DNA of 64,000 nucleotides. Origin: Minisyncoccota bacterium. GTDB taxonomy: Bacteria; Patescibacteriota; Minisyncoccia; Phycocordibacterales; SW-6-46-9. A model generated the notes under the pieces. It saw only the letters and a list, made by a program, of their open reading frames with translations. It was not told the origin of the DNA and did no database searches. The translations under genes were made by a program, and so were the position numbers. Shown here in pieces: positions 20,504 through 63,043 of this stretch. Location of the stretch: assembly GCA_040905385.1 (NCBI GenBank), contig JBBDRP010000002.1, forward strand, positions 226,292 through 290,291. The letters run 5' to 3'. Within the stretch, counting starts at the first letter, position 1; every line of letters starts with the position of its first letter.

Positions 20504-20530
20504 AGAAAAGGACAGAGAGGGAGTGTCTCG

Positions 20531-26700: not shown

Positions 26701-29700
26701 CAGCAGTTTAACGGAACTGATACATCAATTGGTGGTGTATTTAATCTGAGTGCTAAGGATGAAATGGTCGTGTCGGTATGGGCGCAACCAACGGCCAGCG
26801 GGCAGTCCAGCCGGTCGGGAATATTTGGATACAGTGAATATAACGTTAGTTCAGCCTATCGATTGGGTGGATTTAGATTTACAAGCAGTGATTTAGGTGG
26901 GCTTGATATCTATCTAGATGATGGAAGTGCCGAGTGGTTTAACTCCACACTGACACTGAATCTCAACCAATGGAATTACATGGTGGGTAGATTTGAATCA
27001 GGGGTTACAAAAGATATTCTTATCAATGACCAGTGGGATGAACGTACTGCACCGACAGGCAGTTTGGCAGCGGGGACCTCAAGCATAGCACTTGGTGAAG
27101 TGCAGGAAGATCCTGTGAACCGCCGATTTCAGGGGCTCATTTCCGAGGCTCGCTACAGCACCGTAAAGAGGAGCCAGGAATTTTATGCCGCTGAGTATAC
27201 GAACCAATCGACCACCACCGATTTCTATACGGTCGATACGACACCAATCCAGATTGACAGCATCGAGGATTTGGATGATGTACGCAACGACCTATCAGCC
27301 AGTTATGAGTTGACGCGCAACCTGGATTTCGACGACTGCGCCTCTTATGACACCTGTGCCAATATGGACACCTACACAACCGGCAGTGGGTGGGACCCAA
27401 TTGGCACGAGTGGCGACCCTTTTACAGGTCAATTTGATTTCAAAGGACACTCAATTACCGGATTAATGATAAATAGATCTAGCACCGACTATCAAGGACT
27501 TTTCGGGGCCTTGGGACTTGATGGTTATATTCATAGCGGTTCAATTATTAATGCAGATGTTATCGGTGAGAAACGTACTGCAGTACTTGTTGGTTTCATG
27601 GATGGAAATGCACTTGTCGAACATATTTCTATTAGGAATAGTACTGTTGGAGGGTCGTACAGTGGTAACAAGGGACTGTTAGTTGGATGGTTAAATAGCA
27701 CTACTTCTCTGATAAGAGATTCTTATGCTCAAGGGCAAGCAATTGTAGGTAATTATAGTGCTGCAGCTGGAGAAATACATCCTGTTGATGCTCAGTTTCC
27801 TTCTGAAAATCTTTACTTTGTCGGAACTCTTGATTATGGTGCCAGTAGCCCTGTTGGAGGTATTGATGCGGCAGATAATGCTTTAAATAGTTTTTATGAT
27901 CAGGATGTTGCAGGAGAAATTTTTGGAGCAGATCCAGGAAATGCAACAACAACGGTCATAATGCAGGACATTGATACGTATATTAATGCTGGCTGGGACA
28001 TCGTCCCGATCGAAGAGCATGACGGGCAGGAGTCGACGGCGACCTGGTTTATTGATGATGGTAATGACTATCCGAAGCTGTGGTTTGAACGCGAGGGGGC
28101 CCAAAGCACAGCGTTTGGCGACGACCCCGACGGCGACTTTGCCGACACCGACTGGAGCCACCGCGAGAAGATCACCATCAACCCCGACAAGGTGCCGACG
28201 GTTACAAGTAGCGTTAATTCGCGCGTCACGCAATCCAGTGATGATGCTGAGGAAAAGCTTTCCGATAATAGTATGCTTATCTCAAGTTCTGATCTTGAAC
28301 TTATCGCTGATGGCACGTCGCCTGGCGGCGATCAAGAGATCGGACTGCGTTTCCAGAACATTACTATTCCCCAGGGTGCCGTGATCACCAACGCCTACAT
28401 CGAGTTCCAGACCGACGAGACCAACAGCACTACCACCAACCTAACCTTCCGCGCGGAGGATAATAACGATACGACGACCTTTACTACCGGTAGTGGTGAC
28501 ATTACCAACCGATCCAAGACAGCCGCCTCGGTTGATTGGAACAACGTGCCGGCCTGGAATACGATTAGCGAAAAGCATCAGACCCCGGATCTGTCGGCGG
28601 TGGTGCAGGAGGTGGTTGATCGCGCCGGCTGGCAGAGTGGTAACGCGATGGCGATGTTTGTCACTGGTGACGGAACCCGGATTGCCGAGGCATATGATGG
28701 CGAGGCGGCCAATGCACCGCTGCTGCATATCGAGTACGAATCTCCAGCGGCAACCTTGACGGATTTTCCAGTTTATGTTGATCTGGCCGATCTGTCGGAT
28801 ACGTTTTTCGTCTACGTAGCAAATGACGGGGCGGACATCCGCGTGACGGCCGGTGACGGGCTGACCGAGCTTCCGCGGGAAGTCGTGTCTGTGGATAGCG
28901 TCGGGAAGACGGGTGAGCTGCACTTCAAGGCCGATGCAGTATACGGGTCGGTCGGGACTGAGTTCTACATCTACTACGGTAATCCGTTTGCTGTGAATTA
29001 TTCAGCCACGGATACGTATGGTGCTCAGAATGTGTGGAATAGTAATTATGTGTTGGTTAGCCATGATGGAGGTGCCACAGATTCAACAAGCAATGGAAAT
29101 AATGGAACTGCTAATGGTGATGCTACTGCAGGGATAGCTACTGGTAAAGTTGGTACTGCTGCAGAATTTGATGGAGTTAGTGATTCATTCCAGATAGCAG
29201 ACGACGCTTCGCTTGATACACCCTCCGCAATCACTATTACAGCTTGGGTAAATGCGAACTCATTCAAGTCTGACTTCAGCGAAATTGTTAGTAAGAAGTT
29301 TGATACTGGTTATGATTTCTTGGTCGACAATGATGCTGGCACAAACGATTTGGAATTCATAAGTTTTGATGCAGATATTCTTCAGTATTCCAACGATAAC
29401 GTGGTTGCCACTAGTACTTGGTCTCATGTGGCTGTTACATATGATAAATCAAATGTAAATTTTTATGCGGATGGCTCGTATGAAGGAGGCGGTGCAGAGA
29501 CGGCAGATATTGGTACGAATAATGAGGATCTGTATATCGGTAGCGATGCAGGTAATAGCTGGGAGTGGAATGGACTTATTGATGAAGTCAGGATACTCTC
29601 TAGTTCTCAATCTGCTGACTGGATTACAGTCGAGTATAATAACCAGTCGTCTCCATCCACCTTCTACTCTGTAGGTACGCAGGAGATTAGCGGCGAAGAC

Positions 29701-30423
29701 ACGATACCGCCGTATCCAGATCCGAGCGAGTTTGCCGTGGCACCAGATGGGGCCAGCACGTCGTCGATCACGATGACGGCTGCCACCTCTACGGACGGCG
29801 AGGGATCAACCCCGGTCGAGTACTACTTCAACTACCAGGCGTGTGCTGCCGATGCCGGCACCGGCTGGAGTCACTCTGGTTGGTTGGTGGAGACGTCGTA
29901 TACCGACGAGAATCTCCAGGTTAACCAGTGCTACAGCTACCGCGTAAAGACCCGGGATAGCCTGGGTAACGAGACGGCGTACTCGGCAACATCCAGTGCC
30001 TACACCGCCGCCGCAATTCCGGACGCGCCGTCACTTTCCAACCCGACGGAGACGACGCTGGACTTGGTGAACAATGAAGGTGCCAACCCAACCGCTAATC
30101 CCGACACCACCTTTGCGGTACAAGTCAGCGATACCTCACCAGGAGACCAGACCTGGACAAACCAGTACGTCAACGCCAGTGGTGAGCCGTCAGCCACCGC
30201 CGTCTGGCTGACAGACAGCCAGCTGAGCGGCTTGACGGTTACCATGCTGGAGCCGAACATCACCTACACCTTCCGCACCAAGGCTCGCAATGAAGACGGT
30301 GACGAGACCGGCTGGTCGGCGACAACCGTGGCCTCGACCTCGTCTGACTACCCAGATGAGACGGACACCTCAACCCGTCTGCGCGGCGGCTCGACCATCC
30401 GCGGTGGCAGCACAGCGCAGTAA
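20728..30423 (+). CDS. Giant (3231 aa) surface protein, paralogous to gene 2. Has an N-terminal TM anchor, at least seven DUF2341-like modules interleaved with LamG_3 domains, two FN3 domains and a distinct insert domain (nt ~28225-28745). C-terminus ends in ...LRGGSTIRGGSTAQ.
   Basis: Same module signatures as 13177-19737. Long near-identical stretches shared with gene 2 (e.g. AAGLAGSGTEADPYL.STPQDLDD.RNDL; TTAEAQDI.TY.NAGWDIVPI..HDG..STA.WYIDDGNDYP.LWFE). Terminal FN3: YYFNYQACAADAGTGWSHSGWL...YSYRVKTRDSLGNET. Confidence 0.85.
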   Translation: MMILEFYKKVKEFIGRHPRMVAVVGVTVAVLVILGSVGTQAAWYSSTGDGPTWQYRQKITIDADQVDAELTDFPVYVDLSDFGSDFFSNVAADGGDIRITTADGTTELAREVVSVDTASSTGELHFKADSLSASSDSEFFIYYGSSGASDYAVTDTYGRNAVWSDYRFVSHDAGYTDSSGALAQGTLFNGITPNDSAGIIGKATLFDKPSQQYVQLGDTIIPPSSDFTFDVWAEQFDFTGTTVSDESLILTQNDSGSTNATFVHGSNARQNHITGLWDINNSRTLEGPDIRGNGWVKLQIRRDGNEFNLFHNNVLQDATTTAITIPDAANAYLGAYENNGPERFFTGLISEVRSAYTARSDDWIATEYTNQNNTTDFYTIGAQDTQPDSNVAFGANSYGDFADTRWSHREKITIDAAQVDADLADFPVYVDLADLSTTFFQNTNVTCGDIRVTAGDGLTELAREVVACDTASSTGELHFKADSLSASSDTEFYIYYGNNSANNYIHDEQFGRDNVWSDGYAGVWHLSEGSGEARDSTANSSNGTNNGATQGVVGQVGGGYDFDGTDDYVKITENFVSSPSELTISAWFKKESGGDVYETVLHKGSADTVGSSDYWLGVSGDDNLTATIGANTGVGWDAGETTTSVNLGQWYHMAATWDGSVVEVYLDGQFNKQYSLSSYGDLNTDTRFGSSADGTNYQFRGTASEIRIYNKSISGDEISATYRNQNSPTTFYTVGVNEASAGLFGDNPSGDFADADWGYREKITIDADQVGATLTDFPVYVDLSNLSATFFDNVTASGGDIRVTAGDGTTQLAREVVSVNTASSTGELHFKADSISSTTDTSFYIYYGNPNADDYAVGDTYGAENVWSNETLAAFHLEENAVNSSDDNFNGTINGSPAWVTGVIYSALDFLGTNGNNVEISSALQSDITNNSYTVKAWINPRLTGSSNQAIIDTGSEGDGQMRFFMNDTDGSFKIQNTASFTGTGVRSSAGILTADIWNQVVAVVNGTSAILYHNGQEITSGTIDAYTGNGNNIAFGDKPLSSGSSMNALNGSLDEVYIYNSLLSTDWIAAEYTNQSTTTDFYTVGSLEEPSTVFGDDTDGDFADTDWTYREKITINADQVEETLTDFPVYVDLSDFGSQFFNNVRSDGGDIRITASDGTTELAREVVSVDTASSTGEIHFKADEIDAEADTDFYIYYGNTAAVDYVVTDTYGRNAVWSNGYAGVWHTGEDSATQTFDSTGNNNTGNFQDNLPTTQSGKIGDTQDFDGTSDYIDAGTDSSLDITTEITVGVWVNPDNTGGDYTGIVNKSRADTAGFWMGYSANGDIVRWETNDAGGSWHEVDMPLIDAEVGEWNHFVGVYDGSELIGYKNGSQSGTPDSFTGEFETTTNSLKFGDFEVADRWFDGMLDEIRISSAARSADWIATEYNNQNAPSSFYTISGSPSEAPVLLTPEDTATEVSRAPTLDWQPVQSATEYQVQVSPTSTFSSITVDANATDSEIALGTPYPSLDASTTYHWRVRTVDGQSFGAWSTDFSFTTAAGLAGSGTEADPYLISTPQDLDDIRNDLDAYYRLTQDIDLTFDTRDPNGDFYNAGDGWQEIDNFDGEFDMGGYSIIGARIFNGFFDNIGSNGLIHSGKFADCEVHGGYDQGVINETGGAGLIKEVVVDNCSVASGNTTSRRIGGFSGRGISSQDVISRNLVLGGEGDKGANTGRVFDTKVYTRNLIHNVSWEGVSGQTENPLFGWIQSGGNPTVNDVFFDDDTLDYAGTRTDQGTGLTTTEAQDITTYENAGWDIVPIAQHDGQRSTAIWYIDDGNDYPRLWFEYEGEGWKDGWSHREKVTIKSSAVDATLEDFPVYVDLADFGATFFNNVRTDGGDIRVTKADGTTELAREVVSVDTASSTGELHFKADRLASTTDTTFYVYYGNPDASEYATDYAYGRNVVWSDYENVYHLDEQGDGTTGEHIDSAGNHDLTAGYFSAGIPNRVDGNLGYAQQFNGTDTSIGGVFNLSAKDEMVVSVWAQPTASGQSSRSGIFGYSEYNVSSAYRLGGFRFTSSDLGGLDIYLDDGSAEWFNSTLTLNLNQWNYMVGRFESGVTKDILINDQWDERTAPTGSLAAGTSSIALGEVQEDPVNRRFQGLISEARYSTVKRSQEFYAAEYTNQSTTTDFYTVDTTPIQIDSIEDLDDVRNDLSASYELTRNLDFDDCASYDTCANMDTYTTGSGWDPIGTSGDPFTGQFDFKGHSITGLMINRSSTDYQGLFGALGLDGYIHSGSIINADVIGEKRTAVLVGFMDGNALVEHISIRNSTVGGSYSGNKGLLVGWLNSTTSLIRDSYAQGQAIVGNYSAAAGEIHPVDAQFPSENLYFVGTLDYGASSPVGGIDAADNALNSFYDQDVAGEIFGADPGNATTTVIMQDIDTYINAGWDIVPIEEHDGQESTATWFIDDGNDYPKLWFEREGAQSTAFGDDPDGDFADTDWSHREKITINPDKVPTVTSSVNSRVTQSSDDAEEKLSDNSMLISSSDLELIADGTSPGGDQEIGLRFQNITIPQGAVITNAYIEFQTDETNSTTTNLTFRAEDNNDTTTFTTGSGDITNRSKTAASVDWNNVPAWNTISEKHQTPDLSAVVQEVVDRAGWQSGNAMAMFVTGDGTRIAEAYDGEAANAPLLHIEYESPAATLTDFPVYVDLADLSDTFFVYVANDGADIRVTAGDGLTELPREVVSVDSVGKTGELHFKADAVYGSVGTEFYIYYGNPFAVNYSATDTYGAQNVWNSNYVLVSHDGGATDSTSNGNNGTANGDATAGIATGKVGTAAEFDGVSDSFQIADDASLDTPSAITITAWVNANSFKSDFSEIVSKKFDTGYDFLVDNDAGTNDLEFISFDADILQYSNDNVVATSTWSHVAVTYDKSNVNFYADGSYEGGGAETADIGTNNEDLYIGSDAGNSWEWNGLIDEVRILSSSQSADWITVEYNNQSSPSTFYSVGTQEISGEDTIPPYPDPSEFAVAPDGASTSSITMTAATSTDGEGSTPVEYYFNYQACAADAGTGWSHSGWLVETSYTDENLQVNQCYSYRVKTRDSLGNETAYSATSSAYTAAAIPDAPSLSNPTETTLDLVNNEGANPTANPDTTFAVQVSDTSPGDQTWTNQYVNASGEPSATAVWLTDSQLSGLTVTMLEPNITYTFRTKARNEDGDETGWSATTVASTSSDYPDETDTSTRLRGGSTIRGGSTAQ

Positions 30424-30481: not shown

Positions 30482-30886
30482 ATGAGCAAAGAACCCAAAA
30501 AGGAGAACAAAATTACATCATTCACTGATCTGACAACGTGGCAAAAAGGCCATGAACTAGTAGTGGAGATTTATGAGACAACCGAGGAGTTTCCTAAGCG
30601 AGAGGTGTATGCGCTTACCGACCAAATTCATCGATCGGCTGTATCAGTTACTTCCAACATTGCTGAAGGGTTTGGTCGTTTTAGCTACGCCGATAGACTA
30701 CATTTTTACCGCATGGCTCGTGGATCACTGACAGAATTACAGAATCAACTCTTGATTGCTCGTGATGTTGGGTATCTCGGCACGGACAAATTTAAAGCCT
30801 TGGCAAGTAAAACCACTACGGTAGAGAAATTACTACAAGGCTTGATTCGAGCCACGAGTGATAGGAAAGATTCACATACCTCTTAG
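30482..30886 (+). CDS. Four-helix-bundle protein (23S rRNA intervening-sequence protein family, TIGR02436-like)
   Basis: ...TDLTTWQKGHELVVEIYETTEEFPKREVYALTDQIHRSAVSVTSNIAEGFGRFSYADRLHFYRMARGSLTELQNQLLIARDVGYL... matches the family pattern (W..A..L...IY.....FP..E...L..Q..R...SI..NIAEG). Confidence 0.75.
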   Translation: MSKEPKKENKITSFTDLTTWQKGHELVVEIYETTEEFPKREVYALTDQIHRSAVSVTSNIAEGFGRFSYADRLHFYRMARGSLTELQNQLLIARDVGYLGTDKFKALASKTTTVEKLLQGLIRATSDRKDSHTS

Positions 30887-37000: not shown

Positions 37001-37009
37001 ATTTAAAAG

Positions 37010-37129
37010 AGTCGAAAGTCTAAAGTCAAAAGTCGTAAAGTTTAACGTTCATAATATCACGCCTCCAGTTTGGATTTATTAGAAAAATCTAATTGTAACT
37101 TTCGACATTTGACTTTTAGCTTTTAACTT
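37010..37129. repeat. ~135-bp intergenic element, copy 2 (see 33632-33769)
   Basis: Same arm and core sequences as copy 1. Lies immediately upstream (on the minus strand) of the MFS start. Confidence 0.7.
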
Positions 37130-37158
37130 AACTTGTTCTTACCTAGTATAACAAAAAA

Positions 37159-37187
37159 CCTGGGAACATAATGTTCCCAGGTTTTTT
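37159..37187. terminator. Bidirectional rho-independent terminator
   Basis: AAAAAA-CCTGGGAACAT-AA-TGTTCCCAGG-TTTTTT: a 10-bp GC-containing stem flanked by an A-run and a T-run. Confidence 0.8.
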
Positions 37188-37199
37188 AAATAACTCACC

Positions 37200-37830
37200 G
37201 GGTTGAGTTATTTAGCCAGCGTGAAGGATGGCCAGTATTTATCTATTACAAAAGCCGCCATCTTCTCGATAGCGGCTTTCTCGAACGACTTGAATGAGCA
37301 CCCGATATCTCTTGCTGCTAAGCAGGAAGAGAACGGTTGTGCGAATTTACCCGCACACTCGAAGCTTCGAGTGTTAGCTGGCAAAGCCAGCGCGGGTTTA
37401 TGTCCGGAAATTATATGTAATTTCCCTGGACCAAGTCGGCGGGTAAAGCGAGCGCTTCGACTTGCGGAGTGCTCGCGGCTTCCGAAGTCAAGACTTCTTA
37501 TCTTGTTATTTGATTAGCGAAGTCGAGCGACTCAAGTCGGCGGAATAAGCTTGGTGCCGTGGAGTACACGGTGCCAAGCGGCTTAGGGAGTTTAAGTAGC
37601 AATCTGGCGAACTGTTAATTACTCGAAGGACTCAAGTCCGCACGAGTGCTCGCAAATCACAAAACTTTGTAGATAGCGTAGACATGAAGCGAGCTGAAAA
37701 TCTTCGACACAGTAGTGCGAAGATTTCAGTGAGCCAACACTAAGGATGGAATGGATCATATCGAACTATTGATTAATCCAACGCCTCAAGGCGGTAAAAA
37801 TTGTCGGAAATTACATTCTGTTGTAGACTG
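37200..37830. ncRNA. Candidate large structured non-coding RNA region (~630 bp, ORF-free, dense hairpins). Strand and identity unknown.
   Basis: Only a spurious 104-aa ORF. Contains a perfect 20-nt palindrome ACACTCGAAGCTTCGAGTGT (37355-37374); a 12-bp stem CTTGGTGCCGTG-GAGUA-CACGGTGCCAAG with two G-U wobbles (37550-37578); GTCCGGAAATTA-TATG-TAATTTCCCTGGAC; CTGAAAATCTTCG...CGAAGATTTCAG; and repeated words AAGTCGGCGG, CTCAAGTC, GAGTGCTCGC. Confidence 0.3.
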
Positions 37831-37831
37831 C

Positions 37832-41520: not shown

Positions 41521-41751
41521 CTAGATAAGAAAGCTAATGAAGGATGCTAAGGCAAAAAGAATCGCGATAACAATCGTGGCTTTGAATAGGGTTTTATCGA
41601 AGCCGCGTCGTGTACGACCACCTCCACCGGAATCTCCACCACCAAATACGGCACCCAGACTAGCGTCTGTTTGTTGCATTAGTATGGCTGTCACAAGAAT
41701 GACAGACAGGAATATTTGGATGTAGGGAAGAATGGAGCTCATAGCGTTCAC
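41521..41751 (-). CDS. secG: Preprotein translocase subunit SecG
   Basis: 76 aa, two TM helices, LMQQ...GLGAVFGGG motif. Confidence 0.75.
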   Translation of the reverse strand: MNAMSSILPYIQIFLSVILVTAILMQQTDASLGAVFGGGDSGGGGRTRRGFDKTLFKATIVIAILFALASFISFLI

Positions 41752-42018
41752 GTAGGTAGTATTGTAGCAGATGTGAATTTATTTACAACAGCGGTCGTTC
41801 GCACTCCTCCTTTGTGTGCGCACGAATAAACCACGCATTACGCGTGGTTTTTCTCTGCTCGTCCCGCTTTAGCGGGACTGTGCAAGGCTTCACAAAGGAG
41901 AGTACTCACTTAGTAGTACATTTCCAATCTTTTGTAATATAAATAGATTCAGGAAGGAGGTGCGCATATTACGTATTTATAAGCCTGCAATTTTAATTGC
42001 AGGCGCTCTTAAAGCGAA

Positions 42019-42147
42019 CCCACTCCTTCTCAGCTACCTCTCGGAGGCTGATTTGCTCGGTTTCTTCTTTTTGAAGAAAAATCAGCCGAGAGTGAGCGCA
42101 ATTTCTCGCTGGAGAAATTGACGCGTGTATGCTGAGAAGGTAGTGGG
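42019..42147. repeat. ~130-nt compound hairpin structure. Outer inverted repeat CCCACTCCTTCTCAGC / GCTGAGAAGGTAGTGGG encloses two stable inner hairpins (CTCTCGGAGGCTGATTT...AAAATCAGCCGAGAG and GCGCAATTTCTC-GCTG-GAGAAATTGACGCG).
   Basis: Read directly. Lies between secG (-) and the groES promoter. No ORF. Confidence 0.6.
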
Positions 42148-42158
42148 TGAGCGCCCAC

Positions 42159-42187
42159 TTGAAACGGAAGAGCGTGGCGCGTATAAT
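42159..42187 (+). promoter_or_regulatory. Sigma70-type promoter TTGAAA-N17-TATAAT for groES-groEL. An inverted repeat CTGCACT-N19-AGTGCAG (42192-42224) in the 5' UTR is a candidate operator.
   Basis: Consensus hexamers at optimal spacing ~100 bp upstream of the groES ATG. The IR is not a canonical CIRCE. Confidence 0.5.
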
Positions 42188-42290
42188 GTGCCTGCACTAA
42201 TGAATTCTGTAGTTGACAGTGCAGCCACTATATCGACCGCGTGTGGTCGGTAATTTATGATTATTAAAGACGTTAAAAATACAAAAAACT

Positions 42291-42617
42291 ATGGCAAAGA
42301 AAAAGAATCCTGTTGGAATTAAACCGCTTGCCGACCGAGTCTTGATACGAGAAGAGACGGCAGACGAAGGAGAGAAAAAGACGGAGTCAGGAATCATCAT
42401 TCCAGATACGGTTGGCGATGACAACGCTCGTGGTGCTAATCGCGGTGAAGTTGTGGCAGTTGGTGACGGAAAGGTTGATGACGATGGAAAGAAGCTCGAG
42501 ATTCCCGTAAAGGCTGGCGACATTGTTATCTTTAGCTGGGGTGAGCAGCTAACGATTGATGAGATTGATTACCACCTTGTTGATCAGAGCAATATTCTTG
42601 CAGTAGTTGAGGGGTAG
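42291..42617 (+). CDS. groES: Co-chaperonin GroES
   Basis: IKPLADRVLIR...ESGIIIPDT...GEVVAVGDGK... Confidence 0.95.
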   Translation: MAKKKNPVGIKPLADRVLIREETADEGEKKTESGIIIPDTVGDDNARGANRGEVVAVGDGKVDDDGKKLEIPVKAGDIVIFSWGEQLTIDEIDYHLVDQSNILAVVEG

Positions 42618-42651: not shown

Positions 42652-44304
42652 ATGTCTAAAAACGTTATCTTTCATGAGGAGGCACGTCAGAAGCTGATGG
42701 CTGGAATCGACAAGGTTGCGAATGCGGTAAAGGTGACGATTGGTCCGCGTGGACGCAATGTTGTACTGGATAAGGGCTACGGAGCGCCGACCATTACTAA
42801 TGATGGAGTTTCCATTGCTAAGGAAATTTCGCTCAAGAACAAGTTCGAAAACATGGGGGCCGAGATTATCAAGGAGGTAGCCGAGAAGACCAACACGGCA
42901 GCTGGTGACGGAACCTCGACAGCCACGATTCTGGCTCACGCCATTATGACCGAGGGGCTGAAGCGAACAACGCTCGGTGCCAATGCAATGGTGATTCGTG
43001 AGGGTATCGAGGAGGCCGCTCGTGACGCGGTAGAGGAGCTAATGAAGACGGCGACCAATGTACGCGGTGACGACATTCAGCGTGTGGCAGCTATCGCTGC
43101 CGAGAGCGAGAAGCTTGGTGAAATCATTGCCGACACGATGGAGAAGGTCGGCAAGGACGGTGTGGTGACGGTAGAGGAGTCACGTACCACCGGACTGTCT
43201 TCGGAGGTGGTTGAGGGACTAGAGTTTGATAAAGGATTTGTGTCACCGTACATGGTGACCGATTCAGAACGTATGGAGGCGGTGTATGAAGACACGGCGG
43301 TGCTGGTAACCGACCAGAAGATCTCAAGTGCTAAGGATATTCTACCACTGCTGGAGAGTCTGGCACAGGGAGGCCAAAAGGAGCTGGTGATTATCGCTGA
43401 TGATATTGAGGGCGAGGCACTAGCGACGTTTGTGGTTAACAAGCTTCGCGGTGGATTTAACGTGCTGGCTATCGAAGCACCTGGGTTTGGTGACGCCAAG
43501 AAGGATCGACTCGAGGATATTGCGACGGTCGTTGGTGCGCAGGTTATCTCAGAAGATCGTGGACACTCGCTGGACAAGGCAACCGAGTCAATGCTCGGAA
43601 AGGCCGGAAAGATTATTGCCTCAGAAGACAAGACAACCATCGTAGGAGGCGCAGGAACCAAGAAGGATATCGAGGCCCGTGCCGAGAAACTTCGCACGCA
43701 GGCCGAGCATGCTGATGCATCTTATGCTCGTGAGAAGCTCGAAAAGCGTGCCGCTGCATTGACCGGTGGAGTGGCGGTAATCCGGGTTGGTGCTGCTACC
43801 GAGACCGAGATGAAGTATCTCAAGCTGAAGATCGAGGATGCGGTGAATGCTACCAAGGCCGCTATTGAAGAAGGGGTCGTTGATGGTGGTGGAGCCGCGT
43901 TGGTAAAGATTGGCAAGAAGCTTCGCGACAAGCTCGAGAAGATGGATGCCAATGATGATCACAAGGTTGGGTACATGATTCTTACCCGCGCGCTGGACGC
44001 ACCGTTCAAGCAGATTGTTCAGAACGCCGGAAATGAAGAGGCGTCGGCCGTGCTGCATGACGTTCGTATCGGCAAAAAAGGATACGATGCCAAGAACAAC
44101 GTGATTGTAGACAACATCTCCTCAGCTGGAATTATTGATCCGGCTAAGGTGGTGCGAACGGGAATCGAGAACGCTGCCTCTGCAGCCGCAATTCTCCTGA
44201 CTACGGAGGCGGCAGTTGCTGAAGACCCAGACGATGATGATGATCAGCAGGGTGGCGGTGGCATGCCGGGTGGAATGGGTGGCGGTATGCCGGGTATGAT
44301 GTAG
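42652..44304 (+). CDS. groEL: Chaperonin GroEL (C-terminal GGM repeat)
   Basis: ...[17 protein letters not shown]...[13 protein letters not shown]... and C-terminal [16 protein letters not shown]. Confidence 0.97.
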
Positions 44305-44366
44305 TAAAAATCTATGGCGGACAGTGATCCGCAGACACTCTTGCGCGCTTGAGCGCTTCGAGAAAG

Positions 44367-44398
44367 CCACCGTCTCTGCGACGGCGGCTTTTGTTATT
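44367..44398 (+). terminator. Probable groEL terminator hairpin
   Basis: AAAGCCACCGTC-TCTGC-GACGGCGGCTTTTGTT. Confidence 0.55.
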
Positions 44399-44399
44399 A

Positions 44400-44680
44400 A
44401 ACTATCTACAACAGATAGTGATGGGAGAACGTAGTTGACGGCTTGAGCCGTTGGATTGATTGGTAGTCGAGCCAGGAAAGCCGCCAGCACTCCGCCAGTC
44501 GGAGCACTGGCTTATAACCGAATGGTTTGGGAAAATAGCCGTCTCCTGGACGGTCATTTTTGTTATCGGATAACCAGTAAGGTTTTACACTGGAAACCAC
44601 AAAATCTGCGGAAGGTCTTACAGAAAGCAGGTACTCGTTCGTATTGCGAAAAGACCGCCGGTTGACGGTCTTTTTTTAAT
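44400..44680 (+). ncRNA. Candidate ORF-free transcript (~270 nt) ending in a strong terminator; possible small RNA or leader
   Basis: No ORF of 60 aa or more on the + strand. Internal hairpin GCCAGCACTCCG-CCAGT-CGGAGCACTGGC with a symmetric 2x2 internal loop. Terminator AGACCG-CCGGTTGA-CGGTCT-TTTTTTT at 44650-44678. Confidence 0.35.
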
Positions 44681-44766
44681 GGAGGGTATTAATTGACATA
44701 AGATATATATAAATGTAAAGTAAAAATAGAAACTAAAATGTTAATTCTTTAGAAACGGAGGCCATC

Positions 44767-45357
44767 ATGGCCAATATCCTAATAGTAGAAGGCGACAGCC
44801 GTCAAGTGAAGTCGGCGATTGATCATCTAGGTGAAAAGAATGAACTTGTCATATTAAACTGTGACTATACTGGTTTTGTTAGTCTTGAACTGTTTGATTT
44901 CATTCTTATTGACTTACTAAAAACCAGACTTCCTGATCCGGATTATTACAGGTTTGGAAGAGAGAGGATGATTTTCAAGGAAGCTTTTAATCTTCTCGAT
45001 AGATTAGTCATACGAGGAATTGCTTTTGTTGGTAATCCTTGTAATCCAGAAGAAAAGTTTAATAAAGATGTTCTTTCACTTTTTGCTAGATCGTACAAGT
45101 TTTGCTTTCCTAATCCTCCTAGATATGAACACTTCCGTGCAATATCTTCTAGGGGAGAAAAGTCTGAGCTGAGAAATTCTCTAGTTATGTTTAATCACAT
45201 GATTGATGAATATAAATACCTATTGACTCCGGAGGGTAATAGACTAAGAACAGCTTCATTATCTTTAGATCAAATAAGTGATCTTTGTTACAACAAAGAT
45301 CATGTTCCAGAAATACCTTGGAAGGAGGTTGTCCACGCTCTTGAACTTCCAAAATAA
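44767..45357 (+). CDS. Hypothetical protein. The N-terminal ~110 aa resemble a degenerate CheY-like receiver fold (MANILIVEGD...FDFILIDLL); the C-terminal domain is unknown.
   Basis: Receiver-like beta1/beta3 motifs by eye only. No output domain recognised. Confidence 0.5.
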   Translation: MANILIVEGDSRQVKSAIDHLGEKNELVILNCDYTGFVSLELFDFILIDLLKTRLPDPDYYRFGRERMIFKEAFNLLDRLVIRGIAFVGNPCNPEEKFNKDVLSLFARSYKFCFPNPPRYEHFRAISSRGEKSELRNSLVMFNHMIDEYKYLLTPEGNRLRTASLSLDQISDLCYNKDHVPEIPWKEVVHALELPK

Positions 45358-45422
45358 TCACAAAATTAAAATTAAAAGCCAACCGAGCTTCTTGGTTGGC
45401 TTTTTAATATGCTACTCTTGAG

Positions 45423-45962
45423 ATGTATAAAGATTATCCGCTTAAGATTAAAAAGCATATGCGTCGATTATCGAACAAAGCCATTATCACCACGTCGTTT
45501 GGCCGTATTTTTTCTTCAATTTTTGTCGTTCCTGGGTTACGCATGCTTCTTGCAAATATTCAAGAAACAACCTCGGAAGAAATACTCTCTTCTGGATTGA
45601 CTCTTGCGATTACCATAGCCTTGTTTCTACTCGTGATTGTTTACTCGGTTTTGTGGGTCAGGTGGTATTACTACGAGGTCGCTCCAGATGAATTCAAGAA
45701 GGAGTATGGTGTTATTTCTAAAAGCTACACTTCAATTCCCTACAGCCGTATTCAGAATGTGAACATCGAACGAAGTCTACTGGAACGAATGCTGGGAATC
45801 TCAACACTGCAGATCCAGACAGCTGGAACTGGAATGATTCAAGCTGAGGGAAGAGTTCCTGGAATTGAAAAGGATACTGCCGAAGAAGTTCGTGAGGCAA
45901 TTCTTAGCAAATCACGCAGCGGTCGACAAGCTGGGCAGGGAGTCCCTGAACCGGGAGTTTAA
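45423..45962 (+). CDS. Membrane protein with a bacterial PH domain (YdbS/YdbT-like, bPH_2/DUF304)
   Basis: Two TM helices, then ...YGVISKSYTSIPYSRIQNVNIERSLLERMLGISTLQIQTAG.... Confidence 0.7.
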   Translation: MYKDYPLKIKKHMRRLSNKAIITTSFGRIFSSIFVVPGLRMLLANIQETTSEEILSSGLTLAITIALFLLVIVYSVLWVRWYYYEVAPDEFKKEYGVISKSYTSIPYSRIQNVNIERSLLERMLGISTLQIQTAGTGMIQAEGRVPGIEKDTAEEVREAILSKSRSGRQAGQGVPEPGV

Positions 45963-45990
45963 ACAGTCATGATACAAGTCACGCATGTAA

Positions 45991-46015
45991 AAGACCGCCA
46001 CTCAGCGGTCTTTTG
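45991..46015 (+). terminator. Rho-independent terminator
   Basis: AGACCGC-CACTCA-GCGGTCT-TTTG. Confidence 0.65.
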
Positions 46016-46071
46016 TTATTCAATTCAGACATACTCCGGATACTTATTGTGAGGATGGTGGAGGTATCCAA

Positions 46072-46347
46072 TTAGGAGCAGCAAAATGACTGTACGAAAA
46101 AAAGATCGTACAAGCCACCAACAAGAGCAATTATAAAAAGGCCAATCAATCCCCATTTGGCGTACTTGCCGTATCTGCTTTTATCCTTGTCAGTAAAAAT
46201 TTTTGTATAGAGGTATGAACCGAAGCCAAACAGTGTCATGCAGATTCCCACAAATGCGAGCAGCGGTTGTAGCTGATAAACGCTTGATATCAGGACAATA
46301 ATCGCAAAAGAGATAATCCCTAATACTGTACGAGTGGTTTGTGTCAT
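46072..46347 (-). CDS. Small hypothetical membrane protein (91 aa, 3 predicted TM helices)
   Basis: ORF with hydrophobic segments only. Confidence 0.45.
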   Translation of the reverse strand: MTQTTRTVLGIISFAIIVLISSVYQLQPLLAFVGICMTLFGFGSYLYTKIFTDKDKSRYGKYAKWGLIGLFIIALVGGLYDLFFVQSFCCS

Positions 46348-46452
46348 GTATATATACTACTATCCACCAAGGTCAGAAATCACTACATAGGTCTAACCTC
46401 TGTAAATTTCCCAGAGTCTTTCATGTGGGCGTGATATACTATATTCATACTA

Positions 46453-48074
46453 TGCCTTCTGGATTAAATTCTAACGCTGGCTTCGCTGCTCTTTCAATTG
46501 TGCTGTTTATTGGTGGTATCATCGCCGCTAGTACGGTTGGTTACGTTGGCTACCAGGTCCTACAGGAGGATCAGCCGACTGAGAGTATGGCGACGACCAG
46601 TGATTTTTATACTGAAGACAGGGCAGCGACATCCAGCTCATCCGTTCTGGATTTCTGGAAGACATACCGCAACGATGAGCATGGTTTTTCGTTGCGGTAC
46701 CCAGAGATATACGGTGATTTTAAAGATGTCGATGGATGGGCACATGATTCGGAACTAGAATCGTTTCAAACCCAGGCTTCTGGTTACCCAAATTTTTCCG
46801 TTAAAATTCATGACATAGATACGTTTGCAGCCGGAGCGGATGTTGGCGGCACGTGGCCGCATTACTATATTTCCGAGGAAGATCGTTGGATTGCCCGATC
46901 TAGCAACGCCACATCATCACCGTCCACTGGAGACAGTGTTGGGTATACCGCATCTGGTCACAAAGTATACTTTTTTGAGACAGCCAATATACCGAGTCGA
47001 AAAGAAACCTACGCCATTCCTGTACCGGATCAAAATCTGATGGTCGAATTGAGTTTTCTATACAACACTGTTCAAGAAAGTTCTTCATATACGACAGAAG
47101 ATGTTGATAGAGAAAAAATATTCTCATCCTTTGATTTTTACGCCGATATTTCCGCTACATCTGAATCTGATTCATGGCAGACGTACCGGAATGGAGAGTA
47201 CGGTTTTTCTTTCCAGTATCCAGAAGACTGGCGGGTGAGCACCGGCGAATCAGAAGGAAAAGATGAAGTGGTGGTACGAGTTGTGAATCCTGAATATGCC
47301 GGTGCTTCGGATACTGATATCCCGGCTGAGCAGTTTCTTGTGCGTAAAAAAAGCCCACAAGACTGCCAATTCGGGGAGTTAACAAAGATCAAAGGCAGGA
47401 ATGCCTTTGATACCGGTTGGGCCGAAAGTAGATTTACCGGACTTCCGCAGCGTGATATATGCTTTGATGTTGCAGATACTGGAACGTCAGAAAGAGATGC
47501 AGAGATAAAGATATCACTGAGTGGACGGAATGAGGCTTCAGTAAATACAATGAATAGAATTCTGAATTCTTTCGACTTTACTGCTATACCAGATATTCCG
47601 TTAACACTCCATGATATTGATGTGCAGTACACAGATAAATTACTGAATAATTCGGAATTTACGAAAGAAATTAATGTTAATACAAACACTACCAATATTA
47701 GTGTTCGAAAACCAATCAAGTTTGCTGTGTGGAATAGGGTTGGAACAGATGATGAACCATTGGCAGTAATTAATTTATTGTATGAGGTTAAAGACAGTAC
47801 TCCTACTGGATATGAGATAATTCTATTTGATATTGATGCCGGTAATAATATTTCTAATCCGACAAAGATTGATTCTGGTTATACAGCAGGTAGTTACAGC
47901 CAGAACTCTGAATCTTTTTCGCTTAATGCTATTGATACACAGGGACATTTTTCAATTAATCTCGAAGTTCGTATACCTGAGATCGTTGCTGGTAGTGATC
48001 AGGTTAGATATATCGAAAAAGAGTTTAGTTACATGAATGAAGATGTTGTTACTGTCAGTAGTAATGAGGATTAA
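46453..48074 (+). CDS. Secreted or membrane-anchored hypothetical protein with two PsbP/Mog1-like (DUF1795-like) domains. The start is probably the internal ATG at 46453 (MPSGLNS...), not 46341.
   Basis: TM helix FAALSIVLFIGGIIAASTVGYVGY. Twice-repeated W.TYRN.E.GFS..YPE(DW) domain-start motif (aa ~70 and ~270 of the long ORF). Taking 46341 as start would overlap the upstream minus-strand gene. Confidence 0.55.
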
Positions 48075-48176
48075 TAGTAGTTATACGTATATAGACAGAA
48101 GCTTGTTATGGATAGATAACGATAACTAATATAAAGGTGCTATAATAGAGGTGTATTACCAACTAACGTATTTACT

Positions 48177-49886: not shown

Positions 49887-50210
49887 TGCCGAACATTTGC
49901 CAGAAGAGAAGTAGCGGCTGCCAGTTTTAGTACATGATTATGCAAAAGTTTATTATTCGAGCACGTAAAGGCCTTATTTTTAGCTACAATAAATAGCACA
50001 CAAAACTGTGGATAAGTCTACTTGACTCTGTATACCGTTTTGCTAATATATGTGTACGGGCAAAGACAGAGACATTAAAAATCAAAGTTGAGTCGGTACT
50101 TACGACAACCGCATCACTACGATGCATACACCATACACACCCACTCAACACACACATTTTTAACTCACTCTCAATCTTTCCCACACAACACATATTCATT
50201 TCATTTATAA

Positions 50211-50234
50211 TTCTGCATTTGCAGAATTTTTTTA
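50211..50234 (+). terminator. AT-rich hairpin + T8 (TTCTGCATTTGCAGAATTTTTTTA) ending a G-depleted CA-rich tract
   Basis: Read directly. The stem is weak (6 bp). Confidence 0.4.
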
Positions 50235-50349
50235 TTACATACAGCTATTGACCGCAAGAGCTAATTAGAATAATATGTGGCTGCTGAGACATAATCCCCT
50301 TTGTTTCAGCAGGTTACCAATACAGGTAATTCCATCCCACACTCCTACG

Positions 50350-50380
50350 GGCCCGAGCCAGCTAAGCTCGGGCCTTTTTT
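50350..50380 (+). terminator. Strong rho-independent terminator
   Basis: GGCCCGAGC-CAGCTAA-GCTCGGGCC-TTTTTT, with no ORF upstream. Confidence 0.75.
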
Positions 50381-50471
50381 ATTTAATAAAATGAAAACTT
50401 TAGGTATACTGACAGCATACGTAGCATTCATAGAGGGGTGACAGAGTGGATGAAAAAAATATTATTACAGC

Positions 50472-54921: not shown

Positions 54922-54949
54922 CGTAAATACCAATCTTTTGCGTGCGCAC

Positions 54950-54975
54950 AAATAAATCCCTGCGAGGATTTTTAT
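54950..54975 (+). terminator. Weak hairpin + T-run after nrdA (AAATCCCTGCGAGGATTTTTA)
   Basis: 5-6 bp stem. Confidence 0.35.
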
Positions 54976-55062
54976 CCGCTCAGGCGCTCAGTTTGATAGA
55001 AATCGGACATCATACTGAGCGCCTTGCGCAAGGCTCCGAAAAAGAGGTATTTACTCAGTTCA

Positions 55063-55491: not shown

Positions 55492-57819
55492 ATGTCTCAA
55501 TCAGCATCTCAATTAGGGGAGGGTAAAAGAAATGTATCAGTGGATGAAGCTGAAAAAATTATTGGTAAAGTCATGAAGCGTGATGGTGCTATTGTTGATT
55601 TTAATATTGATAATATTGCGAACGCTATTTTCTCTGCAATGAAAGAGACGGAAGAGGGATCTAAATCAGCAGCAGAAAAAGTTGCCAAGCGTGTTTTAAC
55701 AGAGCTCGTTCGTATCAAGGAGCGATACGCTACCTTCGTCCCTTCTGTTGAAGGAATTCAGGACCATGTAGAGAAGGCACTTATGCGAGCTGACTTTCCG
55801 CAGACGGCCAAGGCTTATATTTTATATCGAGAGAAGCGATCGCAAGAGAGAGAGCAAAAAACCTATGTAGTTCCCGAGGAGGTTAAGCAGGCGGTGGCTG
55901 AGTCAAGTCAGTATTTCGGCAGTTCTTATCAGGAGTTTATTTTTTACCGCACCTACTCTCGTTGGCGAGATGATCTCGGTCGGCGGGAAACTTGGACGGA
56001 GGCCATCGATCGGTATATGGATTTCATGCGTGAGAATGTTGGCAACAAAATAACTGAATCTGAGTATAAGGAAGTTCGTCAGGCTATGCTGGATATGGAA
56101 ATTATGCCTTCGATGCGACTACTTTGGTCGTCCGGTAAGGCGGCTCGGGAGTCAAATGTTTGGGCGTACAACTGTTCTTATTTAGCACCAACTCGGTTGC
56201 GAGATTTTCCCGAAATGATGTATATCCTTATGTGTGGAGCTGGTTTAGGCTACTCGGTTGAGACTGAGAATATTGGGCAGTTACCGCAGATAATTAAGCA
56301 AACAGGAGAGCAGCTAGAGACACATGTGGTGGCTGATAATAAAGAGGGTTGGGCTGATGCTTTTCTTCATGGTCTTGAGACGTGGTATGCCGGTAAGGAT
56401 ATTGAGTTTGATTACTCGAAGGTGCGTCCGAAAGGGGCTCGCTTGAAGACGGCTGGTGGTACAGCCAGCGGTCCGCAGCCGCTGAAGAACTTAATGGCTT
56501 TTTCTCGTGAGAAAATTCTTGCTCGACAAGGTAAGCGACTATCAACCATTGATGTGCATGACATAATTTGTAAAATCGGAGAGATTGTAGTATCTGGTGG
56601 AGTGCGACGATCGGCCTTGATTTCGTTGTCAGATCTTGGTGACGAGGATATGCGTGATGCTAAAAAAGGGCGCTTCTTTGACACGGAACCGCAGCGAGCC
56701 ATGGCCAACAACTCAGCAGTTTATGAAGAAAAACCATCACCAGGAACCTTTCTGTCTGAGTGGACAGCGTTGGTGAAAAGTAATTCTGGAGAACGCGGTA
56801 TCTTTAATCGCGGTGGCCTGGAGGAGCAGCTACCCGAGCGCCGTGCAAAAATATTTCGCGAGAAAGAGGAGAATGGAGATATGAGTTTCCGGCCAGGAGT
56901 TAATCCGTGTGGTGAAATTATTCTGCAGAGCCGACAGTTTTGCAATCTTACCAATGTGGTAATACGGAAAGGGGATACCGTGAAAGAGCTGAAGCGGCGT
57001 ATGCGGCTGGCGAGTCTGCTTGGTACGTACCAAGCAACCTTGACAAAGTTCAAGTATCTGTCTGAGGAATGGAAGCAGAACTGTGACCAAGAGCGCTTAC
57101 TTGGCGTTGCCTTTACTGGCTATTATGACAACGAGGCGGTACGCGATGATAAGGTGATGGAGGAGCTTAAAAACGAAGCCGTAGCCGCCAATGATAAGTA
57201 TGCGGAACGTCTTGGTATTAGTAAATCAACCTGTGTGACTACGGTGAAGCCAAGTGGAAACTCATCCCAGCTAACTGACACAGCTTCGGGAATGCATCCA
57301 CGCTACGCTCCGTACTACATTAGACGCGTACGAATCAGCGATACTGATCCTTTGTTTAAATTAATGAAGGAAGAAGGGGTGTCGTACCAGCCTGAGGTTG
57401 GTCAGACTGAGGATACAGCCAATACGTTTGTGCTAGAGTTTCCGCTGAAAGCACCGGAAGGAGCCATCACAACTAAGGATGTTAGTGCCTTAGATCTACT
57501 TAAGGAGTGGCGCCGCGTCAAGGAGCATTACACAGAACATAATCCTTCAATCACGATTTCGGTTGGTGATGATGAGTGGATTGAAGTGGCTAACTTTCTG
57601 TATAAAAATTGGGAGACGGTTGGTGGACTGTCATTTCTGCCACGAACTGACCACGTTTACGACTTAGCTCCGTATGAGCCAATCTCGAAGGAGGAGTACG
57701 AAGAGATGGTTTCCCAGGTGCCGGATGTTGACTTTGCTAAGCTGTCCGCTATCGAGGCGACAGATAATACCGAGGGATCAAAGGAGTTTGCCTGCGTGTC
57801 TGGAGAGTGTCCAATTTAG
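55492..57819 (+). CDS. Ribonucleotide reductase, class II (adenosylcobalamin-dependent, NrdJ-like) with N-terminal ATP-cone
   Basis: N-term VMKRDGAIVDFNIDNIANAIFSA (ATP-cone). NPCGEIILQSRQFCNLTNV active-site motif typical of class II. 775 aa. Confidence 0.65.
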   Translation: MSQSASQLGEGKRNVSVDEAEKIIGKVMKRDGAIVDFNIDNIANAIFSAMKETEEGSKSAAEKVAKRVLTELVRIKERYATFVPSVEGIQDHVEKALMRADFPQTAKAYILYREKRSQEREQKTYVVPEEVKQAVAESSQYFGSSYQEFIFYRTYSRWRDDLGRRETWTEAIDRYMDFMRENVGNKITESEYKEVRQAMLDMEIMPSMRLLWSSGKAARESNVWAYNCSYLAPTRLRDFPEMMYILMCGAGLGYSVETENIGQLPQIIKQTGEQLETHVVADNKEGWADAFLHGLETWYAGKDIEFDYSKVRPKGARLKTAGGTASGPQPLKNLMAFSREKILARQGKRLSTIDVHDIICKIGEIVVSGGVRRSALISLSDLGDEDMRDAKKGRFFDTEPQRAMANNSAVYEEKPSPGTFLSEWTALVKSNSGERGIFNRGGLEEQLPERRAKIFREKEENGDMSFRPGVNPCGEIILQSRQFCNLTNVVIRKGDTVKELKRRMRLASLLGTYQATLTKFKYLSEEWKQNCDQERLLGVAFTGYYDNEAVRDDKVMEELKNEAVAANDKYAERLGISKSTCVTTVKPSGNSSQLTDTASGMHPRYAPYYIRRVRISDTDPLFKLMKEEGVSYQPEVGQTEDTANTFVLEFPLKAPEGAITTKDVSALDLLKEWRRVKEHYTEHNPSITISVGDDEWIEVANFLYKNWETVGGLSFLPRTDHVYDLAPYEPISKEEYEEMVSQVPDVDFAKLSAIEATDNTEGSKEFACVSGECPI

Positions 57820-58495: not shown

Positions 58496-58503
58496 ATATA
58501 CGA

Positions 58504-63015: not shown

Positions 63016-63043
63016 CTCGTACCCCTGTTTTGCTTCGGCACGA

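Follow-up and report, generated by a model that had tools for sequence, protein, structure and literature searches.

The intergenic spacer between the divergent genes secG and groES of a Minisyncoccota bacterium (NCBI GenBank assembly GCA_040905385.1, contig JBBDRP010000002.1, positions 226,292 to 290,291; this whole 64,000-nucleotide stretch is referred to below as the window) contains two copies of a strongly folded element that recurs elsewhere in the window and in related genomes. We conclude that the element is probably a dispersed, non-coding, structure-constrained repeat of the repetitive extragenic palindrome (REP) or MITE (miniature inverted-repeat transposable element) type, that its copies beside groES are most likely passengers, and that groES-groEL is driven by a near-consensus promoter of the sigma-70 type. 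An initial annotation, made from the sequence alone, had described an elaborate nested hairpin upstream of groES and had suggested that it could be a small RNA or an RNA thermometer-like element.

In the window, secG (minus strand) is followed by groES (42291-42617) and groEL (42652-44304), both on the plus strand. GroEL finds its best matches among Candidatus Paceibacterota proteins (Parcubacteria, candidate phyla radiation, CPR). Contigs encoding a GroEL 79-95% identical to that of the window are referred to here as relatives, and fetched loci carry L-numbers (L001, L010, L109 and so on). Gene order is kept in relatives, with the genes for RNase J, a solute-binding protein and SecG on one strand and groES and groEL on the other. 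Since secG and groES are divergent, two promoters must lie within the spacer. The spacer is 539 nt long in the window, compared with 162-273 nt in six lineages and 493 nt in L030; the secG start is likely the ATG at 41742, judging from a product of 73 aa like that of relatives, in which case the spacer would span 41743-42290. The additional DNA of the window sits between the two -35 hexamers, outside both predicted transcripts, and folding of the 539-nt spacer stands well apart from that of shuffled sequences (z = -9.3 for the plus strand, z = -11.0 for the minus strand). The spacer is long because it holds two head-to-head repeat copies, A and B, together with an accessory hairpin, P0 (Table 1).

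Copy B is the nested structure. Its outer inverted repeat and two enclosed hairpins lie where the initial annotation placed them, and the outer repeat pairs perfectly over 10 nt (42025-42034/42131-42140). The 137-nt element folds at -70.1 kcal/mol (z = -8.1, equalled by 0 of 200 shuffles), with z = -9.6 when it is folded as DNA. It is oriented toward the groES promoter, its 3′ end lying 6 nt from the -35 hexamer on the upstream side. Copy A ends 8 nt from the secG -35 hexamer; it was detected by covariance models (CMs) with 44 bits (E = 4e-8, model R1) and 77 bits (E = 1e-18, model R2), compared with just 16-21 bits for its reverse complement, and an orthologue is present in an 87% relative (L030:338-450). 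Helix P3 of copy A has the stem AAACCACGC-N5-GCGTGGTTT at 41828-41850, followed by TTTCT. An intrinsic-terminator pattern was recovered in P3 by a scan on the minus strand and from the sequence GCGTGGTTTTTCT on the plus strand, and P3 looks like a terminator on both strands. This hairpin and T-run, at about 41830-41856, had been taken as a hint of a small independent transcript; the hairpin is indeed present, but it is part of inverted copy A rather than a transcript of its own.

A low-stringency blastn search of the fetched loci with the window-specific segment gave a 131-nt match in L021-L024, in reverse orientation, that begins 5 nt past the groEL stop codon and is followed by a terminator hairpin. 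Copy B and the L022 sequence have in common the motifs CTTCTCA, CCTCTCGGAG, GGTTTC, CGAGAGTG, GACGYGTGTA and TGAGAAG, and compensatory changes, at 22 of 51 pairs (against L022:5683-5820), set their three helices apart. This post-groEL copy, at 57% identity, is the closest relative of copy B found. A first CM was built from copy B and the L021-L024 match, was searched without filters, and was then rebuilt with 7 and later 11 sequences. The two-sequence CM gave copy A and the copies downstream of the ribonucleotide reductase alpha and glutaredoxin genes of the window, all on the minus strand (Table 1), as well as copies in L022 and L025. The rebuilt CMs added copies downstream of groEL in L012, L029 and L109, copies downstream of reductase alpha in L109-L114, the copy A orthologue in L030, and a copy in L058. 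The CM total is four copies per 64 kb in the window and two copies in L022. The window paralogues were revealed by the structure-aware search alone, a blastn-short search of the spacer against the window having returned none.

No further CM match at E < 0.05 was obtained in ~0.98 Mb of loci, mostly from more distant bacteria, so the family looks confined to a narrow Paceibacterota clade. Rfam 15 at its gathering threshold reported only tRNAs in the window; at E up to 5-10, chance-level matches touched copy A only (RNAI, E = 0.84; Leu_leader, E = 1.7) and none of the other copies. The full-text literature that we searched holds no report of such a repeat family in Patescibacteria, which is weak negative evidence. 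Pattern scans of viral contigs gave four matches, none family-like by an nhmmer profile, and we read them as chance.

The copies are 113-154 nt long, with RYGARYAC at the 5′ end and GTRCGARY at the 3′ end. The two YGAR tetranucleotides face each other; their Y and R positions covary in a way that preserves the flanking pairs, and 10 of 11 copies have tandem G.A pairs. For sheared tandem G.A pairs, in DNA and RNA alike, YGAR is the classical context. The long outer helix, P1, has a pyrimidine-rich 5′ arm and a purine-rich 3′ arm, which accounts for the strings in the spacer that resemble anti-Shine-Dalgarno and Shine-Dalgarno sequences. This helix opens into a three-way junction with a variable hairpin, P2, that often has a GGA bulge and GCATGG internal loop and GAGA closing, and a hairpin, P3, that has a GCNG-type loop and is followed by YGTG. 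Several copies have an A-run before P3 and a T-run after it, and hence a terminator-like appearance on both strands. A P0 hairpin lies 4-10 nt 5′ of several copies and, in at least one case, was duplicated along with the element.

Covariation supports this fold throughout. Standard pairs fill 93.5% of pair cells in the 7-copy alignment and 90.9% in the 11-copy alignment (41 and 45 of 51 pairs compensatory, respectively), whereas slid controls are 37-50% and 39-46% paired and 0 of 500 shuffles reach the observed value in either case, the paired percentages being inflated in favour of the structure because both alignments were fitted to the model. The same picture of covariation was given by the first two-sequence MAFFT alignment, independently of CM fitting. 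The signal is specific to one strand: the model strand scores 74-141 bits and the reverse complement 17-21 bits, in all ten of ten copies the fold of the sense strand equals or surpasses that of the antisense strand, by a margin of up to 17.8 kcal/mol, and G.U pairs outnumber A.C pairs by 20 to 5. We rejected two other explanations of the helix ends. The YGAR ends are not a target-site duplication but structural, since the tetranucleotides differ in 4 copies and always preserve pairing. A hammerhead ribozyme or K-turn was also discarded on a by-eye reading: the CUGAUGA/GAAA core is missing, and the G.A pairs lie in a continuous helix that lacks the 3-nt bulge.

The element 3′ ends are often 0-5 nt from a convergent stop codon, namely that of groEL (L012, L022), of reductase alpha (window, L109) or of a glutaredoxin-like ORF, and post-groEL copies recur in three lineages; the L025 copy lies 128 nt past groEL. 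Copies A and B, and the L030 copy (as A), point at a promoter or start, as does the L058 copy, which ends 20 nt before the start codon among unrelated genes. One L022 copy is between two co-directional genes; the sites of the family include the space between the solute-binding-protein and RNase J genes. A tRNA-Arg gene lies 64 nt upstream of the post-glutaredoxin copy on the same strand. At the post-stop sites the better-folding strand is antisense to the mRNA, and the constraint therefore seems not to act on those mRNAs. We propose that the copies would behave as a selfish or duplicative element that folds on one preferred strand, and that they would settle in the few permissive gaps of a compact genome: at stop codons, in the space from a stop codon to a terminator, or before -35 hexamers. 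In such places they could act, as a side-effect, as terminators or insulators.

The distribution of copies differs even between close relatives. In a sister species whose GroEL is 95% identical to that of the window (82% for groEL DNA), the spacer lacks copies A and B, and only a short string like the repeat 3′ end remains, GAGGTGCGAAC-GACCAC-TTGATG. This remnant, AAAGAGAGGTGCGAAC, lies directly before the sister's groES -35 hexamer and is resembled by a possible solo fragment in the window spacer at 41950-41966. The post-glutaredoxin site is empty in the sister species, with a plain terminator there. The post-glutaredoxin copy of the window is 88% identical to the post-reductase copy of the sister, above the identity of groEL DNA, over a stretch of homology of 171 nt that includes P0, whereas identity between the window and sister copies that share the post-reductase site is only 48%. 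The post-groEL copy is present in some and absent from others of the strains whose GroEL protein is identical, and the window has a fragment of it only (~44625-44678, part of the repeat 5′ end with a P0 terminator). In two sister-species strains, three of the four differences in a 1.5-kb stretch lie within the 139-nt element. The family thus varies in presence at orthologous sites and has close paralogues at other sites, which is the pattern of a MITE-type element. Such turnover fits a duplicative, dispensable element and not a fixed regulatory site.

The promoters on either side of the copies are older than the copies themselves. The near-consensus groES promoter called in the initial annotation stands, and an equivalent promoter of the type TTGAC(N)-N17/18-TATAAT is found 59-130 nt before groES in 7 of 8 relatives, among them relatives without the repeat. 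On the secG side, relatives retain an extended -10 (TGnTACAAT) and a -35-like hexamer on a by-eye reading; L010 and L020 have TGCTACAAT and a -35-like hexamer at the same place, the hexamer again aligned by eye. We considered and dismissed the idea that the elements donated the -35 hexamers, given that relatives without elements have the same promoters. Because copies A and B lie between older conserved divergent promoters and outside both transcripts, they are most likely passengers; at most they would serve as insulators or spacers, and not as heat-shock regulators.

These data bear directly on a cis-regulatory role. The nested structure adjoins the chaperone operon, the closest relative of copy B (57%, L022) likewise flanks groESL, and other post-groEL copies do so too. 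However, it is very improbable that the structure regulates groES-groEL in cis, whether as a thermometer, as a leader or as a platform that binds a heat-shock regulator. The end of copy B, at 42152, lies before the -35 hexamer at 42159 and thus outside the predicted mRNA, where no pairing with a Shine-Dalgarno sequence or AUG is possible, and the leader hairpins that do lie within the mRNA end ~40 nt before the AUG; being upstream of the promoters, copies A and B cannot be a groES thermometer or leader. Relatives have the promoter without the element; the sister species and five further relatives lack it here, and members of the same dispersed family sit beside the genes for the reductase, glutaredoxin, the solute-binding protein and RNase J, and beside the unrelated genes of L058. 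Aligning the groES upstream regions of relatives gave a mixed outcome for the initial annotation: the layout of promoter and stem-loop is conserved, but the nested element is missing in the sister and in most relatives, and its proposed role as a groES-specific regulatory RNA or thermometer is not borne out.

A second alternative is that the repeats are multi-copy genes for structured trans-acting RNAs, or processed pieces of such RNAs, with two of these genes beside groES. Such RNAs would bind a protein or mRNAs through the unpaired GGA, GCAUGG, GAGA and YGUG elements and through the clamp of tandem G.A pairs. Strong covariation of every helix, conservation of the unpaired nucleotides, a better-folding strand that is always the same, the excess of G.U over A.C and the strand-specific CM scores would all be consistent with this, as would the fact that some copies, such as copy A in the window and L030, have stayed at one locus in different lineages. 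Nonetheless, we consider both this explanation and the proposed mode of binding unlikely. Flanks and promoter scans revealed no conserved promoter before the element 5′ ends and no T-run after the closing helix; several copies have a terminator-like hairpin 4-10 nt 5′ of the element, which leaves no room for a promoter; the terminator-like P3 would cut the RNA short ahead of P1 closure; sister species and strains freely lose or replace copies; and the family is without an Rfam match.

Several observations weigh against reading the family as a mobile or duplicative repeat. No transposase, target-site duplication or clean empty/filled junction was found, and at the lone empty site the entire spacer has been replaced, so that any mobility could be recombination or gene conversion rather than transposition. 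Compensatory change, the G.A clamp and a consistent better-folding strand are equally expected of a functional RNA family. Six of the seven distinct site types have the sense strand opposite the main gene strand, a bias that could reflect function and not neutrality. In addition to the fitting of the alignments described above, the detection of the family only in a narrow clade refers to ~1 Mb of sampled loci and to a window that is 64 kb of a 784-kb genome. We still favour a dispersed repeat of the REP or MITE type, and compared it with known systems.

Bacterial REP and REPIN elements are mobilised by RAYT tyrosine transposases (Nunvar 2010, PMC2817692; Bertels and Rainey 2011, PMC3116915). 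Like them, the family described here is dispersed, extragenic and non-coding, has compensatory changes that preserve its fold, is often found in 3′ regions by terminators, folds preferentially on one strand, and coexists with a RayT-like gene. Unlike them, it is a three-way junction of 113-154 nt and not a 20-40-nt palindrome or REP doublet, has no GTAG or CGTC tag, and has a modest density (4 per 64 kb). Copies A and B were also examined as a REPIN-like doublet and rejected as such, since they belong to different sub-clusters and are 44% identical.

The RayT-like ORF (19823-20503, plus strand, 226 aa) has an HYH motif, and its similarity to Pfam Y1_Tnp (E = 5e-4) and to NCBIfam REP_Tyr_transpos (E = 0.018) is weak; JGI names an 84% identical homologue RayT, and PF01797 is found in many homologues. 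The gene lies between two giant surface-protein genes, with synteny kept in the sister species (L119). Flanking it are three REP-like hairpins in the same orientation (19757-19791, 20525-20559 and 20647-20681; GTAAGGAT-AAC-ATCCTTRC). These hairpins (GTAAGGATAACATCCTTRC, 27-35 nt) occur nowhere else in the window, have covaried in the sister species and are unlike the three-way-junction family. A likeness of the P0 of copy B to a RayT-flanking hairpin (GYCTGYAA...TTRCAGRC) involves one copy only and was taken as coincidence. The gene may be a domesticated RAYT in a CPR genome.

We reasoned that the repeats could be REPIN-like and be moved as folded single-stranded DNA by this HUH tyrosine transposase. 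Such enzymes act on one strand of hairpin DNA, which would explain the strand-specific fold and the tolerance of G.T pairs, the YGAR context suits sheared tandem G.A in DNA too, and the enzyme is encoded in the same window. Yet the RayT-like gene carries flanking hairpins of its own, syntenic and covarying in the sister, the repeats lack the tag, and three of the four window copies have the sense strand on the leading-strand template (GC skew is positive throughout the window). The link between RayT and the repeats is attractive, but it finds no support here and we regard it as improbable.

The repeats also resemble the bacterial MITE-like structured repeats Correia/NEMIS, ERIC, BOX and RUP (reviewed in PMC3184786 and PMC10969869), in that they are ~100-150 nt long, intergenic and present in either orientation, have long terminal complementarity, vary in presence in close relatives, and can donate terminators or adjoin promoters. 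They differ in that their terminal helices covary from copy to copy, leaving no fixed inverted repeat common to all, in that no target-site duplication or parent insertion sequence was found, and in having internal branched hairpins and the G.A clamp. Integron attC sites are likewise conserved in structure and variable in sequence, lie directly after stop codons, have a folded strand antisense to the ORF, and have variable neighbouring genes. However, the window family has no RYYYAAC/GTTRRRY cores, is not arrayed, and has some copies upstream of promoters; no integrase is present among the annotated window ORFs and no attI nearby. A more speculative possibility, which we judge to be well short of probable, is that the repeats are a new class of CPR element that works single-stranded, either as mobile DNA recognised by its structure (with a RayT-like or other partner) or as a trans-acting RNA with a G.A clamp. 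In either case the element would be folded as single-stranded DNA or RNA.

We next turn to the inverted repeat CTGCACT-N19-AGTGCAG, which the initial annotation had located correctly between the promoter and groES and had rightly described as unlike canonical CIRCE. Transcription of groES is predicted to start ~7 nt past the -10 hexamer, near 42194, placing the start of the CTGCACT arm at the mRNA 5′ end. All 8 relatives have a promoter, a stem-loop 0-6 nt from the predicted start, a second stem-loop and an A/U-rich leader; the sequences are unrelated, and the hairpin at the position of stem-loop 2 also differs in sequence. A common layout despite unrelated sequences argues for a structural role at the RNA level. 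Stem-loops at the 5′ terminus, as in the ompA, aprE and ermC leaders, stabilise bacterial mRNAs against 5′-end-dependent decay. The CTGCACT repeat is similar to these in having a stem within a few nt of the predicted 5′ end, in a structure that is kept while the sequence is not, and in an organism that encodes RNase J. We infer that the repeat most likely acts in the RNA, by 5′-end protection or as a leader-binding site, and the adjacency of the RNase J gene makes 5′-end protection a reasonable guess. Unlike a typical stabiliser, this putative one has an unusually long 19-nt loop, with a sequence conserved in the sister.

The sister species provides an argument against a generic stabiliser. 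From the -10 hexamer through the repeat, 19-nt loop included, 46 of 47 nt are identical in window and sister, whereas the spacer between -35 and -10 and the second hairpin have diverged; L020 partly retains GCACTAA and TGTAGTTG. Such near-perfect identity exceeds what a generic stabiliser hairpin needs and, set against 82% identity of groEL DNA and the partial retention in L020, leaves room for a lineage-specific protein or RNA partner. We weighed whether 42192-42224 is a DNA operator for a lineage-specific groESL repressor rather than an RNA stem-loop. The repeat overlaps the predicted transcription start straight after the -10 hexamer, and the conservation just described, loop and L020 remnants included, would suit an operator. 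On the other hand, the two half-sites are centred 26 bp, or ~2.5 helical turns, from each other; the 64 kb and sister loci have the motif only once; no recognisable regulator is present among the Pfam-annotated window ORFs; and the unrelated hairpins at that position in other relatives fit better with a structural RNA role. We therefore regard an operator as possible but doubtful.

A divergent HrcA site, as had been proposed, is not supported, given that single occurrence of the motif and the unrelated stem-loops in other relatives. The repeat resembles CIRCE in lying between the -10 hexamer and the groES start and in a common GCACT...AGTGC core; it differs in its spacing (19 rather than 9 nt), in its arms and in not being conserved in relatives. 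CIRCE itself (TTAGCACTC-N9-GAGTGCTAA) was absent from the window with up to 3 mismatches allowed, and from every locus with a GroEL at least 58% identical, whereas the same scan recovered 18 sites in distant loci. No HrcA domain was found among the window ORFs scanned. The groES leader also contains a 21-codon upstream ORF (42257-42322, plus strand) that overlaps, in another frame, the start of groES; because the sister species lacks its ATG, it is unlikely to be meaningful.

Table 1 Coordinates of promoters, leader stem-loops and repeat copies in the window
Feature	Position	Strand	Remarks
secG promoter, TTGTAA-N16-TACAAT, extended -10 TGcTACAAT	41761-41788	-	Promoter scan
Repeat copy A	41797-41909	-	Minus-strand ends 5′-GTGAGTAC...GAGTGCGAAC-3′; clusters with the post-reductase copy of the window
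Copy A, helix P3 (A-run, 9-bp stem, T-run)	41828-41856	both	AAACCACGC...GCGTGGTTTTT hairpin
Copy A, helix P2, GTCCCGCT-N2-AGCGGGAC	41861-41878		Inverted-repeat scan
Possible solo fragment like the repeat 3′ end, CAGGAAGGAGGTGCGCA	41950-41966	+	Suggested by sequences and inverted repeat
Hairpin P0, GCCTGCAATT-TT-AATTGCAGGC	41983-42004		9 nt 5′ of copy B; similar hairpin before several other copies
Repeat copy B (nested hairpin)	42014-42152	+	Three-way junction; CM 158 bits
Copy B helices	P1 42018-42037/42128-42148; P2 42038-42092; P3 42095-42124	+	Closed by CGAA/TGAG tandem G.A
groES-groEL promoter, TTGAAA-N17-TATAAT	42159-42187	+	11/12 consensus positions
Leader stem-loop 1, CTGCACT-N19-AGTGCAG	42192-42198/42218-42224	+	Starts about at the predicted transcription start
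Leader stem-loop 2	42231-42252	+	Next comes an A/U-rich leader with no clear Shine-Dalgarno sequence
Copy after ribonucleotide reductase alpha	54923-55054	-	CM 92 bits; 3′ end 1 nt from the stop codon; antisense to the gene
Copy after glutaredoxin	63015-63152	-	CM 95 bits; 3′ end overlaps the last stop-codon base of ORF 62770-63015

Other candidate features of the spacer were examined and set aside. The 53-aa ORF at 41960-42121 was rejected as a type I toxin: its hydrophobic segment is poor, it overlaps P0 and copy B, and the region is missing in relatives. A replication origin was rejected because GC skew, positive over the entire window, shows no switch. Genes for 6S RNA, SRP RNA, tmRNA and RNase P RNA were sought in the spacer with Rfam and ARAGORN, with negative results there; the RNase P RNA maps outside it. 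Neither of the two possible SecG products had a match in exact look-ups, and a GroES scan of genome contigs gave only distant phyla (35-46% identity). The only public contig with the exact GroES of the window, L001 (Logan contig SRR27977661_1700037), starts at window position 42102, within P3 of copy B, and its assembly may have broken at the repeat or hairpin.

The neighbourhood of groEL varies in gene content. The interval between groEL and lemA (44305-48176 in the window) has three genes in the window, none in L026 and L028, and one in L010 (bPH_2) or L012; the L012 gene encodes 369 aa with no Pfam match, and strains with an identical GroEL differ in this interval. In the sister species, a gene for a 304-aa HNH endonuclease between SOUL and DUF192 (L110:6793-7707, L113:4890-5804) is strain-variable by comparison with L109. 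On the other side of the locus, an 831-nt stretch between the MFS transporter and RNase J genes (37001-37831) has no ORF of 120 aa or more and is strongly structured (best 150-nt segment, z = -6.7). It contains a 170-nt multi-hairpin segment (37359-37528) closed by YGAR...YGAR that may be a distant relative of the repeat family, its CM matches being not significant.

The divergent bacterial RNase P RNA at 58135-58499 (plus strand) scores 68 bits (E = 6e-19), under the Rfam gathering score of 100; that of the sister species scores 99.6 bits (L109:12005-12359). Between the post-reductase repeat and the RNase P RNA sits a gene for a 775-aa class II-like ribonucleotide reductase (55492-57819, plus strand; ATP-cone, RNR_Alpha and B12-RNR insertion domain). 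The matching sister interval lacks this gene: in L109, reductase alpha ends at 11677 and MurJ starts at 12458. Upstream of tRNA-Phe (63923-63995), the segment 63741-63922 (plus strand) begins with a duplicate of the first 18 nt of that tRNA (GCTGGAGTAGCTCAGGGG), followed by ~165 nt of structured sequence (z = -7.9). The distance from the preceding ORF to tRNA-Phe is ~27 nt in L109 and ~300 nt in the window, and the segment thus looks like an insertion carrying a duplicate of the tRNA 5′ end. The 585-nt spacer before tRNA-Ser (49887-50471) has a long A/T- and CA-rich hairpin (z = -8.3 around 50087). Three giant ORFs (2138-13117, 13177-19737 and 20728-30423; 3659, 2186 and 3231 aa) have Laminin_G_3/ConA-like, DUF2341 and Ig-like domains. 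They are followed at 30482-30886 by a gene for a small 23S-rRNA-IVP/bAvd-like four-helix-bundle protein, near which there is no reverse transcriptase gene; hence a complete diversity-generating retroelement is not present here.

The striking structure upstream of groES is therefore no evidence of unusual heat-shock control: the operon lacks CIRCE and has a strong promoter of an ordinary kind together with a structured leader. It is instead an indication that a highly streamlined 784-kb genome tolerates and turns over large, strongly folded repeats. Where the repeats supply or replace terminators after essential genes, they bear on how transcription is organised in compact genomes. If they are mobile, as we suppose, they would be a rare case of repeat proliferation in a CPR genome and might serve as a marker of strain-level variation; if RNAs, they would form a new structured RNA class. 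Should they prove to be elements that work single-stranded, their preference for stop codons and promoters would mean that they reshape the terminators and intergenic architecture of minimal genomes.

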